The notes beneath the pieces were generated by a model that was given only the letters and a program-made list of their open reading frames with translations, ran no database searches and was not told the origin of the DNA. From NCBI GenBank assembly GCA_035531675.1, contig DATKSL010000008.1, forward strand, positions 1,982 through 65,981: 64,000 nucleotides of DNA. The letters run 5' to 3'. Source of the DNA: Candidatus Binataceae bacterium. GTDB lineage: Bacteria > Desulfobacterota > Binatia > Binatales > Binataceae. Every line of letters begins with the position of its first letter. Positions within the stretch are counted from its first letter, which is position 1. Below, piece after piece: positions 2,680 through 44,388 of this stretch. The position numbers and the translations under genes are program-made.

Positions 2680-3030
2680 ATGGCACGCATCACAATCTAC
2701 CATAACCCGGGCTGAGGACAGTCGCGCGGCGCTCATCGAATCCTGAGCGACCGCGGCGTCGAGTTCGACGCCATCGAATACTTGAAGCATCCACTCGACC
2801 GCGCCACGCTGGTGCGGATCCTTACGATGCTCGAGTCGCCGCCGGCCGAACTGGTGCGCAAGGACAAGCGCTTCGCCGAGCTCGGACTCAAGGCTGAGGA
2901 TTACGTCGATCGCGACCCGGTGATCGAGCTGCTGCTGAAACATCCGGAGCTGATGCAACGACCGATTGTGATTCGCGGCCAGCGCGCGATTATCGCGCGG
3001 CCCGGCGAGAAAGTGCTGGAGCTGCTGTAG
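2680..3030 (+). CDS. arsC: ArsC-family (glutaredoxin-type arsenate reductase-like) protein with in-frame UGA at the catalytic Cys position; candidate selenoprotein
   Basis: AGGAGG (2669-2674) precedes ATG 2680. The frame reads MARITIYHNPG-TGA(2713-2715)-GQSRGAHRILSDRGVEF... and continues uninterrupted to TAG 3028-3030. Full-length resemblance to R773 ArsC (ITIYHNPACGTSRN ... RPIV ... RP.E.VL..L). The ORF track shows only fragments 2524..2715 and 2782..3030 in this same frame. Confidence 0.75.
2725..2755 (+). promoter_or_regulatory. candidate bacterial SECIS hairpin downstream of the ArsC UGA
   Basis: CGCGGCGCUCA / loop UCGAAUCC / UGAGCG-A-CCGCG. This is 11 bp with one bulged A, starting after a 9-nt spacer from UGA 2713-2715. 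Confidence 0.45.
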
Positions 3031-38986: not shown

Positions 38987-40480
38987 TTAACTTATGGACC
39001 TTGCCGAGGTCGGAACCCCTATCGCAACCATCAGGAGCGGGCTCTTGCCGTCGGCATGAGGGGCAAAGAACGCCGTCGTGTCATCGTCGTAAAAGGTCAG
39101 CCCGGTCGCACCATGACCCAGCGCGAACGACGCCAGCCAGGCCCGCCCGCCCATCAGACCGGCCTCCAGGTGCAGGTCGCGATAGCCACGATTCCCGACC
39201 TCGCCGAGCGCGCGATCGAGCCTGGCCATGTAACAGATCAGGACGCTGCAATCAGCGCCAATCGGCTGCTCCAGGCATAGGTAGCCGGCGTTGCCGCGGA
39301 ACTCGCCGCGCTTGATGAGCTCGAGCGCGCCGCGCCGGCGATCGTGGAAATAGGCGCCCGGTTCCATCCCGTCGACCGCGTTGACGATCAGGTAGGCCTC
39401 GCACCTCGACGCGAAGTCGGCGCGCGGATGGCGGCTCGAGGCCGCCAGAATCTCGTTCAGATCCGCGGCCGGTATCGCTTCAGGGCTGAACGCCCGGGTT
39501 GCGCCGCGACGCAAAATCGTCTCGCCCAGTCCCAGTCCCCGGCTCGACCCGGCCAGCGACAGGCCCGGCTCCCCCGGCTCCGACGATGTTCCCGCAATCG
39601 CACTGACCTCGTCGCTGGTCTCGAGTCGCGATTCGCGATGGACGCTCACCAGTTCCGGGTAGATCACCTCGCTCGGCGAGAGCGGCAACGATTCATAGGC
39701 GATCGCATCGATAGCGGCGGCCTCGCCTGCCGCAGCCGTCGTGCCGAGCGCCACCGCGCAGGCGACTCCTTCGCGTTCGCCGTCGACGCCGATCAGGGTT
39801 TCGAGTTGCGCGTCGACAAACGCCGTCACGAGCTCGCTGCCGAGACTTTCGGCGCGGACCGCGGCCAGCAGGTTGGCGAGCATCGTCCCACTGTCCCAGA
39901 AGCAGTAACGATAGGCGCGGGCGCGATATTTCCAGGCGCTGCGCCAGAAGTTCGTGCTCAGGATCAGGATCGCGCGCGCCTCTCGCAGCGAGCGGCGCCC
40001 ATCGGCCGCGCCGGCGATATTCAATCGGCAATCCCCCCCTCGCAGCGCCCGCAGCTTCAGGTCGGCCGGCGAGAAGTGGTAGAGGCCGGGCGCGAGCCCC
40101 TGCACCTCCGCCGCCGCGAGATAGATCTCGACCGGGTAGAGCGCTCCGGCCGACGGCGCGGCGCGGAAATGATAATCCTCGCCGTTGACCTGGCGATGGC
40201 GGGTCAGGCCGCCGGCACAGAACAGAATTCGGGTCAGCGCCGCAAGATCGATTTCCGTGCCCGCCGCTTGCGCCGCCTCGGTTGAGATCGCTTCAAGCGC
40301 CGGTATCGGCGCAAGACTGAGGTCGCGCGGCAGCATCACCGCCGGCGCGTCGGGATAAATCTTGTAGGGGCTCGGCCGGTTCTCCCAATCGAGCCGATGC
40401 GGCGTGCTGCGGACGCTGGTGTACGAATGTTTGGTCAGATCATGAAAGCGTTGCGCCGCCTCGATATCGCGGTTGCCCAT
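38987..40480 (-). CDS. SagB/ThcOx-type dehydrogenase (tandem nitroreductase-fold domains)
   Basis: 497 aa. The N-terminus AAQRFHDLTKHSYTSVR...LDWENRPSPYKIY is the hallmark start of SagB-type dehydrogenase domains. The second half repeats the nitroreductase-like pattern. Confidence 0.7.
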   Translation of the reverse strand: MGNRDIEAAQRFHDLTKHSYTSVRSTPHRLDWENRPSPYKIYPDAPAVMLPRDLSLAPIPALEAISTEAAQAAGTEIDLAALTRILFCAGGLTRHRQVNGEDYHFRAAPSAGALYPVEIYLAAAEVQGLAPGLYHFSPADLKLRALRGGDCRLNIAGAADGRRSLREARAILILSTNFWRSAWKYRARAYRYCFWDSGTMLANLLAAVRAESLGSELVTAFVDAQLETLIGVDGEREGVACAVALGTTAAAGEAAAIDAIAYESLPLSPSEVIYPELVSVHRESRLETSDEVSAIAGTSSEPGEPGLSLAGSSRGLGLGETILRRGATRAFSPEAIPAADLNEILAASSRHPRADFASRCEAYLIVNAVDGMEPGAYFHDRRRGALELIKRGEFRGNAGYLCLEQPIGADCSVLICYMARLDRALGEVGNRGYRDLHLEAGLMGGRAWLASFALGHGATGLTFYDDDTTAFFAPHADGKSPLLMVAIGVPTSARSIS

Positions 40481-40617
40481 CTATCGCCGATACGTCCCGA
40501 ACCGGGGTGTGCGTCCCGCCGCGACTGGCAGGGCTTTAATGACCTTTACTTCGATAGCGGCTGTAAGGATCACACGATCCTGCAAATTTGCGGTCTCCGA
40601 TTCTGCACCGGGGATGG

Positions 40618-40947
40618 CTACTTCTTCGCTTTCTTGAGCCGCGCCATCATCTCCCGCTCTTCCGCCGCGCGGGTGTCGAAACCCTCGAGCGGGATGACTT
40701 CCCATTTGACCATTCCCCAAAAGGGAATCTCGCGCAGCATCCGGTCCAGCTTCTCGTTCGACTCGGCTTCCGCCACGAACACGAACTCGCGTTCGCCGAC
40801 GATCACTCCGCCGGCCAGAATCCGCTTCTCGGCCTGCAGCCTGTTCAGCGCATCGAGGCTCGGCAGCACGACCTTCTCCAGCAGCTCAAGCGCATCCTCG
40901 GGAGTTGCGAATCCCGGCGCGTCGGACCCTGAAACGAGGTATTTCAT
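40618..40947 (-). CDS. muconolactone-isomerase-like (dimeric alpha/beta barrel) small protein
   Basis: 109 aa. GGAG 8 nt upstream of ATG 40945-40947. The pattern ...LQAEKRILAGG...FVFVAEAESNEKLDRMLREIPFWGMVKWEVIPL resembles muconolactone isomerase (from memory). The assignment is tentative. Confidence 0.5.
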   Translation of the reverse strand: MKYLVSGSDAPGFATPEDALELLEKVVLPSLDALNRLQAEKRILAGGVIVGEREFVFVAEAESNEKLDRMLREIPFWGMVKWEVIPLEGFDTRAAEEREMMARLKKAKK

Positions 40948-40984
40948 CAACCATTCTCCTTCAATCGGGGGCTTCGGTCTTAAT

Positions 40985-42136
40985 TTAATTCTCGTATTCC
41001 TGGCGCAGATGGCGCGCGATCACCAGCCGCTGAATTTCCGAGGCGCCTTCGTAGATCCGCAGCGCCCGCACCTGCCGATAGAGCCGCTCGACCCGCACCC
41101 CGCGCCGCACCCCGTTGCCACCGTGAATCTGCACCGCTTCGTCGATCGCGCGCCACGCCGCCTCGGTCGCGAACAGCTTCGCCATCGAGGCCTCCTTGCT
41201 GACGCGCGCCGCTCCGCGATCCTTGAGCTTGGCGGCCCGATAGACCAGCATCCGCGCCGCCTCGAGCGAAGTCGCCATGTCGGCCAGCTTGAACTGGATG
41301 GCCTGGTTGTCGATCAGCGGATGGCCGAACTGGACGCGCCCGCGGCTGTAGCGAATCGATTCTTCGAGCGCCGCCTGCGCCATCCCGATCGCCGCCGCAC
41401 CGACCGACGGCCGGTAGACATCGAAGGTCTGCATCGCGATCCGAAAACCCTGCCCGGGTTCGCCCACGATCTGGTCGGCGGGAATCGTGCAGTCCTTGAA
41501 GCTCAACTCGCCGATACAATGCGGCGCCGAAAGATCGAACTGCTGCACGACCGCGAAACCCGGCGCCTCCTTTTCGACGATAAAGCACGACAGGCCGCGC
41601 ACGCCCGCCGCTGGATCGGTCTTCGCGAACACCGTGTAGGTGCCGGCCACGCCCGCGTTCGAGATGAAGATTTTGCCGCCGTTGAGCACCCAGCTCGCGC
41701 CACGCCGCTCGGCGACGGTTTCGATCATCGACAGGTCGGAGCCCGCCGCCGGTTCGGTGAGCGCGTAGCCGGCGAGCTTTTCGGCCCGCGCGATCGGCGG
41801 CAGAAAGCGGCGCTTTTGCGCCTCGCTCCCGGCGACCACGATCGGATAGCTCCCCAGCCCCTGCATCGTGAACAGCAGGTCGATATTGGCCGAGCCGCGC
41901 GCCAGCTCCTCGCGCACCAGGCAGACCTCGGTCGCCTTGACGCCGGGACCGACGCCGCCGTACTCCTCGGGAATCACCACGCCGAGGATTCCCTCGCGCA
42001 CCAGCATCGCGGCCACGTCCCATGCCACCGCCGTGGTCTCGTCGAGCTCCGCCGTGCGCGGCATGATCTGCCCGTCGACCAGCGCGCGCACCCGCTCGCG
42101 CATCCGCTGCTCGTCTTCGCTCAGCAACAGCTCCAT
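40985..42136 (-). CDS. acyl-CoA dehydrogenase
   Basis: 383 aa starting MELLLSEDEQRMRERV. It has YALTEPAAGSD, a catalytic-region IYEGASEIQRLVIAR and the ending. The track start at 42490 is a spurious extension. Confidence 0.9.
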   Translation of the reverse strand: MELLLSEDEQRMRERVRALVDGQIMPRTAELDETTAVAWDVAAMLVREGILGVVIPEEYGGVGPGVKATEVCLVREELARGSANIDLLFTMQGLGSYPIVVAGSEAQKRRFLPPIARAEKLAGYALTEPAAGSDLSMIETVAERRGASWVLNGGKIFISNAGVAGTYTVFAKTDPAAGVRGLSCFIVEKEAPGFAVVQQFDLSAPHCIGELSFKDCTIPADQIVGEPGQGFRIAMQTFDVYRPSVGAAAIGMAQAALEESIRYSRGRVQFGHPLIDNQAIQFKLADMATSLEAARMLVYRAAKLKDRGAARVSKEASMAKLFATEAAWRAIDEAVQIHGGNGVRRGVRVERLYRQVRALRIYEGASEIQRLVIARHLRQEYEN

Positions 42137-42167: not shown

Positions 42168-43229
42168 TCAGCCGCGCTTGGGCTCCGGGATGGTGGCTGC
42201 GACTTTGATCGGCAATTGAAAGCGGATGATCTGCGGCGCCTCGCATTCGGTGTCGCTGCATTGCTGCAGATCGACGGTTCCGGCCAGCGTGTAGTCGGCC
42301 GGCTGCAGCGGAAACTTGAGCAACACGCGGCCGGCGGCGGTGAAGTTGCCGGCGTGAACCGGGAGCGTCTCGCCCAGCGCCTCGAAGCGCTTGGTTTGCG
42401 GCGGCGGAAATTTGAAACTGTAGCTCGCCACGTGATGGGTCTCGAAGCGAATCGCGGTCGCGGTGTAACTGCCGGGAACCGGCGCGCCATAGATATGCCA
42501 TCCGGGGGCGATCGAAAATTCCGCGCTCACACCCAGCTCCTGCCCGCCGAAGGCTTGGGCGGCCGAGAGGCCGATGCGAATCCCGACGTGACCGCTCTTG
42601 AGTTCGACAGCGGCGCTCGAACCGGCGCCCGCCGTACGCATCGCCACTTCCGAGCCGGTCACGCGATGCTGATAATTGGGGACGAAAAATTTCTCGCGCA
42701 CCGTACCGTCGGGTGCGAGCAGGTATTCGACCGGATGCGGCACGCCATAGGAGCGCATATCGGGCAGCATGTTTTCGTTGAACAGCCCGAAACGGCGAAT
42801 CACCGCGCTACCCTGGTCCGAGAGCAGCGGGTAGCCGATATGGTTAAGCTCGCTGAAGGTTTTGAGAATCTCCTGCGAGTCGTAGCTCACCCCGACGATC
42901 TTGATTCCAGACCGCTCCAGGAGAGCGCGCGACTGTTCCAGCTCGACGAGCTGGTTGCGGCAAAACGGTCACCAGTCGGCGCTGCGATAAAACACCAGCA
43001 GCAGGCCGTCGGGACCGGTCAGATCGCCGAGCGCGCGCGCTTTGCCATTCTGATCCGGCAGCGTGAACTCAGGCACCCGCGTACCGATCTCGGGGCCGGT
43101 GGTGAAGCCCTCGTTGGTGACCGCGACGAAGCGCGTGTAAACCTCGGGCGGCACCGGCTGACCGCTGGCCCGCAGCCGATAGAATTCGCGCATGATACGA
43201 GTCTTGGTTTCGAGATCGGTGGTGCTCAT
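42168..43229 (-). CDS. redoxin (AhpC/TSA-thioredoxin fold) fused to a DsbD-N-terminal-like domain, with in-frame UGA giving a U-x-x-C motif; candidate selenoprotein
   Basis: GGAGGA 10 nt upstream of ATG 43227-43229. The frame reads ...LLLVFYRSADW-TGA(42969-42971)-PFCRNQLVELEQS...GVSYDSQEIL... and continues in frame to 42168. Track ORFs 42969..43331 and 42168..42890 are in the same frame, 26 sense codons apart. The C-terminal GWHIYG ... LQQCSDTECEAP matches the DsbD-alpha/PF11412-like domain. Confidence 0.7.
42939..42953 (-). promoter_or_regulatory. candidate SECIS hairpin downstream of the redoxin UGA
   Basis: mRNA CAGCUC-GUC-GAGCUG (6-bp stem, loop containing GU), 15 nt after the UGA. A second small hairpin (CGCUC-UCCUG-GAGCG) lies at 42913-42927. 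Confidence 0.35.
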
Positions 43230-43370
43230 CGATGAACGATCCTCCGTGTGAAATGACAAGGTGCGAGACGACGCTTCACGATATTGCCACGCGCCAAACA
43301 ACCCCCGCAAGGTAAGCCGGACTCGAACCACCGCGCGCGTCGATGCGCCGACTCATCTATACTGGCCGGC

Positions 43371-43709
43371 ATGGACGATTTCATCGTTACTACCATGAAC
43401 GAGATCCCGGGCTACGAAATCGTGGCGGTCTACGGCGAAGTGTTCGGCCTGGTATGCCGGGCGCGCAACGTGTTCGCGAATCTGAGCGCGGGCTTGCGCA
43501 CGCTGATCGGTGGCGAGGTGCCCGAGTATACCCAGCTGCTGACCGACAGCCGGCGCAACGCGGTCGCGCGGCTCAAAGATGAAGCGCAGTTGATGGGGGC
43601 GAACGCGGTGATCGCGATGCGCTTCGATTGCAACGAGATCGCCAACCTGGTGAGCGAAATCGCGGCCTACGGCACCGCGGTCAGGGTGCGCAAGCAGGGG
43701 CAGGTCTGA
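43371..43709 (+). CDS. ybjQ: YbjQ-family (UPF0145) protein
   Basis: 112 aa: TTMNEIPGYEIV.VYGEVFGLVCRARNVFANLSAGLRTLIGGE...Y..LL...R..A..RL...A..MGANAVI.MRFD is the typical YbjQ pattern. Confidence 0.8.
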   Translation: MDDFIVTTMNEIPGYEIVAVYGEVFGLVCRARNVFANLSAGLRTLIGGEVPEYTQLLTDSRRNAVARLKDEAQLMGANAVIAMRFDCNEIANLVSEIAAYGTAVRVRKQGQV

Positions 43710-43794: not shown

Positions 43795-44388
43795 TTACAG
43801 CCGCCGGCCGACGGTCAGTGTCTCACGCAGCGGCGGTGCGATTTCGGCGAACCATTCCTCGCCTTCGAGGCCGAGCGCCGCGGCCATGCGGGTGACGAAC
43901 ACCCGGTACGAGGCGTTGAGCGCGATGTCGAGGATATTGACGTCGGAGAAGCCGTGCTCGCGCAGCCCCGTGATGTCGGCTTCGGAGATGCGCTCCGGGT
44001 CGAGTGCGATCTTGGCGGCATAGTCGAGCATCGCCACATCCGCCGCCGACAGACCGGCGTCGTGATAGTTGCAGGCCAGGGCGCTTACCTGGTCGGCGGT
44101 GGCTTTCCCGCTCTTCACCATCAGACCGCCGTGGGCGACGGCGCAGTAGGTGCACTTGAGCAGCGCCGCGACCACCAGCGCGATGCGCTCCTCGCGTTCG
44201 CGGCCGAGCGAGGTGCCGCCGAAATGCGATCGCTTGGCGAGCAGTTCCAGCGCCTCGACGGCCCCCGGTCTGAGGCTCGCCAGCTGGCGCATCTTGGGCA
44301 CGAACGGCATGGTTTTCAGGATGCCGTCGTAGACTTCTTTGAGCTGCCCGCTGGCTTCACTCGGGGGAACGGTTTTTATCCAGGCCAT
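43795..44388 (-). CDS. AhpD-like / carboxymuconolactone decarboxylase family peroxidase-related protein
   Basis: 197 aa. The N-terminus MAWIKTVPPSEASGQLKEVYDGI and the CxxC motif KCTYCAVAHG are typical of the peroxidase-related CMD subfamily. Confidence 0.75.
   Translation of the reverse strand: MAWIKTVPPSEASGQLKEVYDGILKTMPFVPKMRQLASLRPGAVEALELLAKRSHFGGTSLGREREERIALVVAALLKCTYCAVAHGGLMVKSGKATADQVSALACNYHDAGLSAADVAMLDYAAKIALDPERISEADITGLREHGFSDVNILDIALNASYRVFVTRMAAALGLEGEEWFAEIAPPLRETLTVGRRL

Follow-up and report, generated by a model that had tools for sequence, protein, structure and literature searches.

Bacterial selenoproteins of the 'Prx-like' type, in which an AhpC/TSA-type domain (PF00578) carries a thioredoxin-like U-x-x-C motif (U, selenocysteine, Sec) in place of the TxxU of Sec-containing peroxiredoxins, have been catalogued since 2004–2005 (Kryukov & Gladyshev 2004, as cited in PMC13188914; PMC1088965; PMC2398784). 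Sec forms are commoner than Cys forms in this family, 'Prx-like 1' is among the most abundant selenoprotein families in the GOS data, and published surveys find that Prx-like and AhpD-like selenoprotein genes cluster. Here we describe a gene with the same U-x-x-C in a PF00578-type domain, on the minus strand of a 64,000-nucleotide stretch of DNA from a Candidatus Binataceae bacterium (contig DATKSL010000008.1 of assembly GCA_035531675.1); the whole stretch is called the window below, and positions are counted within it. An in-frame TGA divides the gene into two listed open reading frames (ORFs), which are very likely one selenocysteine-encoding gene. The favored reading as a whole, a single 353-residue selenoprotein gene with SelB-type decoding whose product is a two-center oxidoreductase, is one that we hold to be probable, with good confidence.

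Judged by its sequence, the gene is a member of the known Prx-like (UxxC) family and not a new kind of system, and because of this membership we do not present the family as new. The GOS 'Prx-like 1' read JCVI_READ_900765 (...LFHRSADW-U-PYCKAQLVELQ...) matches residues 45–247 of the window protein at 32% identity (E 2e-41) and extends into the start of its second domain, RSADW-U-P-[FY]-C being common to the window and the GOS reads; previously published sequences evidently include the redoxin-DsbD_N-like architecture. In the passages of the cited sources that describe the family, neither the helical hairpin at the N-terminus of the window protein nor its DsbD_N-like C-terminal domain is mentioned, the GOS fusion figure shows other, unrelated domain fusions, and the sole DsbD-related entry in the table of a 2026 review is a different rhodanese/DsbD fusion. 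The GOS read has a signal peptide, whereas the window clade has none.

Three further described groups resemble parts of the protein. The alpha domains of DsbD and ScsB, periplasmic electron carriers of immunoglobulin fold, share with its C-terminal half the Pfam family, the fold and two cysteines near the C-terminal strands. The window protein differs from DsbD and ScsB in having no membrane (beta) domain, in placing the alpha-like domain after rather than before the thioredoxin-fold domain, in its predicted cytoplasmic location, in its low sequence similarity (with TM-scores of only 0.43–0.67), and in its C-x4-C spacing as against the C-x5-C of E. coli DsbD. ResA, TlpA and CcmG, which are physiological partners of DsbD/CcdA-type systems, have the same fold with W-C-x-x-C at the start of helix alpha1 and are matched in both sequence and structure, whereas in the window protein Sec takes the place of the nucleophilic Cys, a membrane anchor is lacking, further domains are present, and the scaffold is nearer to that of BCP. 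The BCP/PrxQ peroxiredoxins are the best match of its redoxin domain, which lacks the Thr and Arg of their catalytic triad.

One frame across the UGA codon

Translation of 43229..42168 (minus strand) gives a single frame of 353 sense codons and a stop, with its sole internal TGA at 42971-42969; the listed ORFs 42969..43331 and 42168..42890 lie in this common frame. Across the junction the frame reads ...LLLVFYRSADW*PFCRNQLVELEQSRALLERSGIKIVGVSYDSQ..., and more widely ...GLLLVFYRSADW*PFCRNQLVELEQS.... The original prediction, made from the sequence and a list of its ORFs, had described two minus-strand ORFs in one frame parted by a TGA, a GGAGGA 10 nt before the ATG, and a selenoprotein of roughly 353 residues made up of a U-x-x-C redoxin and a DsbD-alpha-like domain. 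The frame is as it described, the GGAGGA is present at 43245-43240, and the protein proposed there is borne out by the homologs, the conservation of the TGA, the hairpin, the sel genes beside the homolog in three loci and the structural match of the C-terminal domain set out below.

A search of a large protein collection returned 701 homologs. Full-length ones, of 358–374 aa, span 96–98% of the query, can be aligned over its whole length including the N-terminus, and have W-C-x-Y-C where the window has W-TGA-P-F-C; aligning these Cys homologs, a check that had been suggested at the outset, shows the same architecture continuing across the site, and the halves are not separate genes there. About 90 of the best 120 database matches are gene calls of 250–270 aa that begin just past the motif, as expected for Sec forms truncated by gene calling. 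In the DNA behind three of these truncated calls (55–80% identity), W-TGA-x-[FY]-C-R is in frame each time, and the conserved N-terminal part before the TGA stands among the gene calls as a separate ORF of 86–89 aa.

Eighty loci came out of a genome scan that took a single genome for each species; they belong to Candidatus Binataceae, Bryobacterales, Acidiferrales, Terriglobia, 'Deltaproteobacteria' and Dormiibacterota. At the UGA site the alignment shows TGA in 75 of the 80 gene copies and TGC or TGT in the other 5, a Sec share of ∼94% for the subfamily, which resembles the wider Prx-like family in this preponderance of Sec forms. The 75 TGA copies are at 42–87% protein identity, the nearest relatives being metagenome-assembled genomes (MAGs) of Binataceae at 82–87%. 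The protein is conserved on both sides of the UGA, and the 26 codons from the TGA to the GTG at 42890 are strongly conserved. Retention of TGA at the position of a catalytic Cys across phyla is something that a nonsense mutation, a sequencing error or a pair of genes cannot explain.

Individual homologs show further features. Tandem paralogs ∼1.8 kb apart (L074, positions 4256 and 6083) both have the in-frame TGA and near-identical hairpins. On a 2-Mb long-read contig (L005/L075), the N-terminal part, upstream of ∼5976, is out of frame relative to the relatives, with the TGA and everything downstream intact; this frame break is probably an indel error of the assembly and not a real truncation. 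In the database entry of the homolog P0030 (JGI sample 3300047160) the Sec position is given as Trp (SADW-W-PYC); the codon may really be TGG, or it may be a TGA that the annotation pipeline translated under an alternative code.

The downstream hairpin and selenium genes

The original prediction had also pointed to a hairpin, CAGCUC-GUC-GAGCUG, 15 nt after the UGA, which is found at 42953-42939 and which an extra C-G pair extends to 42954-42938. Counted from the U of the UGA it occupies positions 18–34, and its loop (G25-U26-C27; GUC, or GGUCG with the closing pair open) starts 21 nt downstream of the UGA. This distance falls inside the range of bacterial selenocysteine insertion sequence (SECIS) models, and the G-U at +25/+26 recalls the GGUC loop of the E. 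coli fdhF SECIS.

The hairpin is conserved over 72 distinct sequences of the Sec form; their alignment is free of gaps, and the pair counts that follow are based on it. The RNAalifold consensus has a single helix, pairing columns 18–23 with 29–34, and 92% of the hairpin cells are paired. Pairs 19–33, 22–30 and 23–29 are invariant; pair 20–32 is AU in 71 sequences and GU in 1; pair 21–31 is formed in every sequence, as AU in 38, GC in 32 and GU in 2; and the outer pair 18–34 is CG in 53, GC in 7, UA in 3 and something else in 9. In covariation score as in percentage paired, the alignment exceeds 500/500 shuffles and every slid control. The switch at 21–31 couples a change in a Gln codon at its third base (CAA/CAG) to one in a Leu codon at its first (TTG/CTG), both changes being synonymous, and TTG elsewhere in these genes makes up 12–15% of Leu codons. 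Synonymous choice is constrained in the helix: the Glu codon of the 3′ arm is GAG in 75/75 copies, Leu-7 uses only CTC or CTG, Leu-10 only TTG or CTG and Val-8 only GTC or GTG, whereas equally conserved residues elsewhere employ three or four codons.

The strongest test is the contrast between Sec and Cys forms. Of the five core pairs, at least one is broken in 7 of the 9 Cys forms, whereas all five are intact in each of the 72 Sec forms (Fisher p = 1e-8), and the breaks in the Cys forms are often synonymous, for example GAG to GAA under an unchanged QLVELE peptide. A helix kept together with the UGA in this way is as expected of a bacterial SECIS. The second small hairpin of the original prediction does fold in the window sequence (42927-42913), but we rejected it as a part of the element: its conservation stops at the nearest relatives, and the RNAalifold consensus lacks it.

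Selenium genes adjoin the homolog in three Bryobacterales loci (L012, L019 and L023), where selD, on the same strand, ends ∼50–60 nt before it and a divergent selA-selB pair is found upstream; this arrangement is confined to one lineage, 3/80 loci. Within the window, the claim of a second TGA at a Cys position holds as well. It lies at 2713-2715 in an ArsC-type gene (2680..3030, plus strand) that reads MARITIYHNPG-TGA-GQSR..., the TGA taking the place of the catalytic Cys. The gene encodes a glutaredoxin-type arsenate reductase (ArsC/Spx family) whose U-to-C version scores 100 bits against TIGR00014 (cut-off 106), and the 63 nt from its UGA form two stable hairpins (z = -2.59). Together, the redoxin gene and the Sec-type ArsC indicate selenocysteine use by this Binataceae organism; within the literature library that was searched, no paper paired Binatota, Binatia or Binataceae with selenocysteine or selenoprotein.

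Domains, proposed mechanism and rival readings

Pfam was searched with the window protein after U had been replaced by C, and Redoxin is reported for it in addition to the AhpC/TSA-type match. Residues 47–195 best match BCP/PrxQ among PDB sequences (2cx3_A, E 3e-14), with ResA/TlpA next. For structure we used an AlphaFold2 model of the Cys homolog P0009 (53% identical; pLDDT 92.8, pTM 0.89) as a stand-in, and Foldseek likewise gave a BCP as its best match (5epf, E 2e-11), with ResA also matched. In this model the motif (C90-x-x-C93 in P0009) lies between beta1 (strand 78–83) and the N-terminus of alpha1 (helix 91–102), so that C/U-x-x-C follows beta1 at the start of helix alpha1 as in a thioredoxin fold; alignment and model together place the invariant Pro166 before the central strand, where a cis-Pro loop is expected. 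Aligned with BCP, the protein has C90 where the peroxidatic Cys stands and U87 where the T/SxxC motif has its Ser/Thr. The peroxiredoxin signature, PxxxT/SxxC with an Arg, is thus altered at three places, the Thr/Ser being Sec, the Pro being Arg83 and the Arg being the invariant Pro166. All NCBIfam models (among them BCP, PrxQ, 'SelL-related redox protein', ResA and 'WAxxUGC') fall far below their cut-offs, BCP at 64 against 140 bits, and no NCBIfam model reaches its cut-off for the window subfamily. Because the Thr and Arg of peroxiredoxins are absent, we read the protein as a selenol/thiol-disulfide oxidoreductase and not a peroxidase; the arrangement is of thioredoxin rather than peroxiredoxin type, since known Sec-peroxiredoxins carry TxxU. 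We infer a peroxiredoxin-like scaffold with thioredoxin-type chemistry, Sec87 being at the nucleophile position.

That the C-terminal half resembles the DsbD N-terminal domain (PF11412) had likewise been proposed, and this is upheld by a Pfam match above the cut-off, a family also precomputed for most homologs, and by structure. The AlphaFold2 model of window residues 205–353 is an all-beta sandwich (pLDDT 94.1) whose best PDB match is the ScsB N-terminal domain (6c29_A, E 1.4e-5, TMq 0.67), followed by DsbD N-terminal domains (6dps, 3pfu, 1z5y_D and 1vrs_A); over the top PDB matches, E ranges from 1e-5 to 4e-4 and TMq from 0.43 to 0.67. A hidden Markov model of the domain found no chain among PDB sequences even at E 10, so it is modeling that shows the fold. 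By analogy with DsbD, the cysteine pair C324–C329 is presumed to be a second redox center.

At the N-terminus, neither the window protein nor its acidobacterial relatives have a hydrophobic stretch, signal peptide or transmembrane segment, in keeping with the earlier remark that no signal peptide was obvious. Lacking a signal peptide, the window copy is presumably cytoplasmic, and so without the periplasmic location of DsbD_N and ScsB-alpha domains. A sister clade at 45–50% identity, made up of the Sec forms L050, L056, L061, L065, L066, L068 and L072 and the Cys form L069 and coming mostly from Binataceae or 'proteobacterium' MAGs, has hydrophobic N-terminal extensions (upstream of position ∼4000 of these loci) that by eye resemble signal peptides and end in AxA-type motifs; it presumably works in the periplasm. 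By this same inspection, exported-type and non-exported-type versions of one two-domain selenoprotein coexist.

In the mechanism that we propose, UGA-87 would be decoded as Sec by the bacterial pathway, with SelB bringing Sec-tRNA-Sec and being recruited through the coding-region hairpin 42954-42938; this SelB decoding is the well-supported part. The selenenylsulfide couple U87–C90 would then exchange electrons within the molecule with the C324–C329 disulfide, much as in the gamma-to-alpha step of DsbD, and the alpha-like domain would hand electrons to client proteins or take them from these. Our confidence in this two-center intramolecular relay, which is modeled on DsbD, is moderate to low.

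Several observations weigh against the reading of the gene as a SelB-decoded, two-center selenoprotein. ARAGORN finds no tRNA-Sec in the window and none in 83 loci, and tblastn with E. coli K-12 SelA, SelB and SelD gives no match in the 64 kb. In this sequence taken singly, the 60-nt stretch behind the UGA has no significant folding advantage over its shuffles (z = -0.66), so the single-sequence hairpin proves nothing and its significance comes from comparison. Rfam at gathering thresholds reports only a tRNA-Val over the whole window, and at E ≤ 10 it gives only noise for the hairpin region, with no family matching. Two Cys forms (L055 and L091) retain the hairpin. On a neighbor-joining tree AU and GC mostly sort by clade, so that independent compensatory events are few (∼1 for pair 21–31 together with two G-U intermediates, and 2 for pair 18–34). 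All-against-all clustering of ORFs over the 80 loci brings out no universal neighbor that would point to a donor or substrate. DsbD-alpha-like domains are normally periplasmic, with which a cytoplasmic setting sits oddly, and the electron relay is drawn wholly by analogy.

For the UGA, two other readings have to be considered. If it were a true stop, the locus would be a pseudogene, would contain a sequencing error, or would hold two genes, one for a peptide of 86 residues and one for a protein of 240 residues that begins at GTG 42890; gene callers do make this last split in nearly all public assemblies. Such a stop, however, would interrupt the thioredoxin fold immediately ahead of its active site, and the C-x-x-C motif would be lost; strong protein-level conservation extends over the 26 codons from the TGA to GTG 42890, TGA in 75 copies at 42–87% identity is incompatible with error or decay, and the Cys homologs run through. 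We find this reading scarcely credible. Read-through without selenium, by a near-cognate tRNA-Trp or tRNA-Cys or under a reassigned code, would account for the Sec machinery not being found in the window and for the Trp recorded in P0030. But TGA is the main stop codon here, ending 21 of the 32 confident ORFs of the window (the 353-codon gene among them), by which an alternative genetic code is ruled out; the hairpin lies at SECIS distance and is conserved specifically with the TGA, homologs have a catalytic Cys at the position, sel genes adjoin the homolog in three loci, and the family is already catalogued as Sec-containing. We regard selenium-free read-through as very unlikely, and prefer Sec insertion.

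The order of electron flow is a separate matter. The redoxin domain might instead be the catalytic end-point, a peroxidase or a specific substrate reductase in the manner of the envelope peroxiredoxin PprX or of CcmG/TlpA, with the alpha-like domain as its reductant and electrons passing from alpha to redoxin. This would suit the BCP/PrxQ matches in sequence and structure, the alignment of C90 with the peroxidatic Cys, and the redox and peroxide genes that recur nearby; moreover, the N-terminal domain of DsbD and ScsB-alpha reduce thioredoxin-fold partners, a peroxiredoxin included. Against it, the catalytic Thr is Sec and the Arg is the invariant Pro166, the NCBIfam peroxidase models score far under their cut-offs, and the Sec occupies the thioredoxin-type nucleophile rather than the peroxidatic position, known Sec-peroxiredoxins being TxxU. 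We consider the end-point reading unlikely and retain the two-center oxidoreductase. A further-reaching idea, to which we give only slight credence, is that the subfamily is a self-contained Sec-dependent 'gamma-alpha' relay module derived from the DsbD system, cytoplasmic here and exported in the sister clade, and that its co-location with selD-selAB may reflect a role in selenium handling, for example the reduction of selenium compounds for SelD, and not general redox defense.

Neighboring genes and significance

The coordinates of the gene, its features and its neighbors are collected in Table 1. The divergent YbjQ/DUF74-like ORF and the selenoprotein gene have the intergenic region 43230-43367 in common. 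The upstream AhpD-like neighbor has a C-x-x-C motif in its Cys form (CTYCAVAH) and is missing from the locus of the nearest relative (L001). Downstream, the acyl-CoA dehydrogenase gene begins 30 nt past the selenoprotein stop, and the 110-aa ORF has no family match; the acyl-CoA dehydrogenase and SagB-like genes are syntenic in the nearest Binataceae relatives (L001 10783-13419) and not elsewhere. Lineage-specific neighbors at other loci include OsmC-like and TlpA-like ORFs (6 loci each, identified by eye and not by Pfam scan). No recurrent family of any kind stands out among the neighbors, which were clustered by sequence and not scanned with Pfam, so that individual loci may have a gene of CcdA/DsbD type.

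Table 1. Features of the selenoprotein locus (window positions unless a locus is named; residue numbers are those of the 353-residue protein)
Feature	Position	Strand	Basis or remarks
Selenoprotein CDS, 353 residues	42168..43229	-	ATG 43229-43227, Sec codon 87, terminal TGA 42170-42168
Shine-Dalgarno-like GGAGGA	43240..43245	-	10 nt 5′ of ATG; read from sequence, putative function
In-frame UGA, codon 87, read as Sec; opens W-U-P-F-C motif	42969..42971	-	Codon alignment and W-C-x-Y-C in Cys homologs
SECIS-like hairpin C-CAGCUC-GUC-GAGCUG-G	42938..42954	-	Sole RNAalifold consensus helix; covariation; synonymous constraint
N-terminal helical hairpin, ∼residues 5–42, not a signal peptide	43103..43217	-	Conserved in Sec and Cys homologs; two helices in P0009 model
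AhpC/TSA-type redoxin (thioredoxin-fold), residues 48–179	42693..43088	-	Pfam PF00578, E 2.5e-26
Active-site motif W86-U87-P88-F89-C90	42960..42974	-	BCP alignment; AlphaFold2 model of homolog
DsbD/ScsB-alpha-like immunoglobulin-fold domain, residues 222–333	42231..42566	-	PF11412, 29.2 bits, cut-off 25
Cysteine pair C324-x4-C329 (QQCSDTECEAP)	42243..42260	-	Invariant in alignments of 57, 34 and 52 sequences
YbjQ/DUF74-like ORF, divergent	43284-43709	+	'Putative heavy metal-binding protein' models, all below cut-off
AhpD/CMD-like 'peroxidase-related enzyme', upstream neighbor	43795-44388	-	TIGR01926, 95.5 bits, above cut-off
Downstream genes: acyl-CoA dehydrogenase, 110-aa ORF, SagB-type nitroreductase/dehydrogenase (497 aa)	38987-42136	-	
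sel cluster around homolog	L012 1-960; L019 83-3942; L023 99-3855		selD same strand, selA-selB divergent

Current understanding is not overturned by this finding. The subfamily is widespread in soil Acidobacteriota and Binatia, yet its gene is split or shortened in nearly all public assemblies, and because the resulting fragments start past the UGA, protein databases lack the active site of this widespread redox protein of soil bacteria. The main value of the present work lies in the correction of this systematic mis-annotation and in the record of selenocysteine use in a Binataceae-like genome. As a fusion of a U-x-x-C redoxin with an alpha-like domain that occurs in both cytoplasmic and exported versions, the subfamily also offers a natural test case for the preference for selenocysteine at the nucleophile position of a thiol-disulfide relay.

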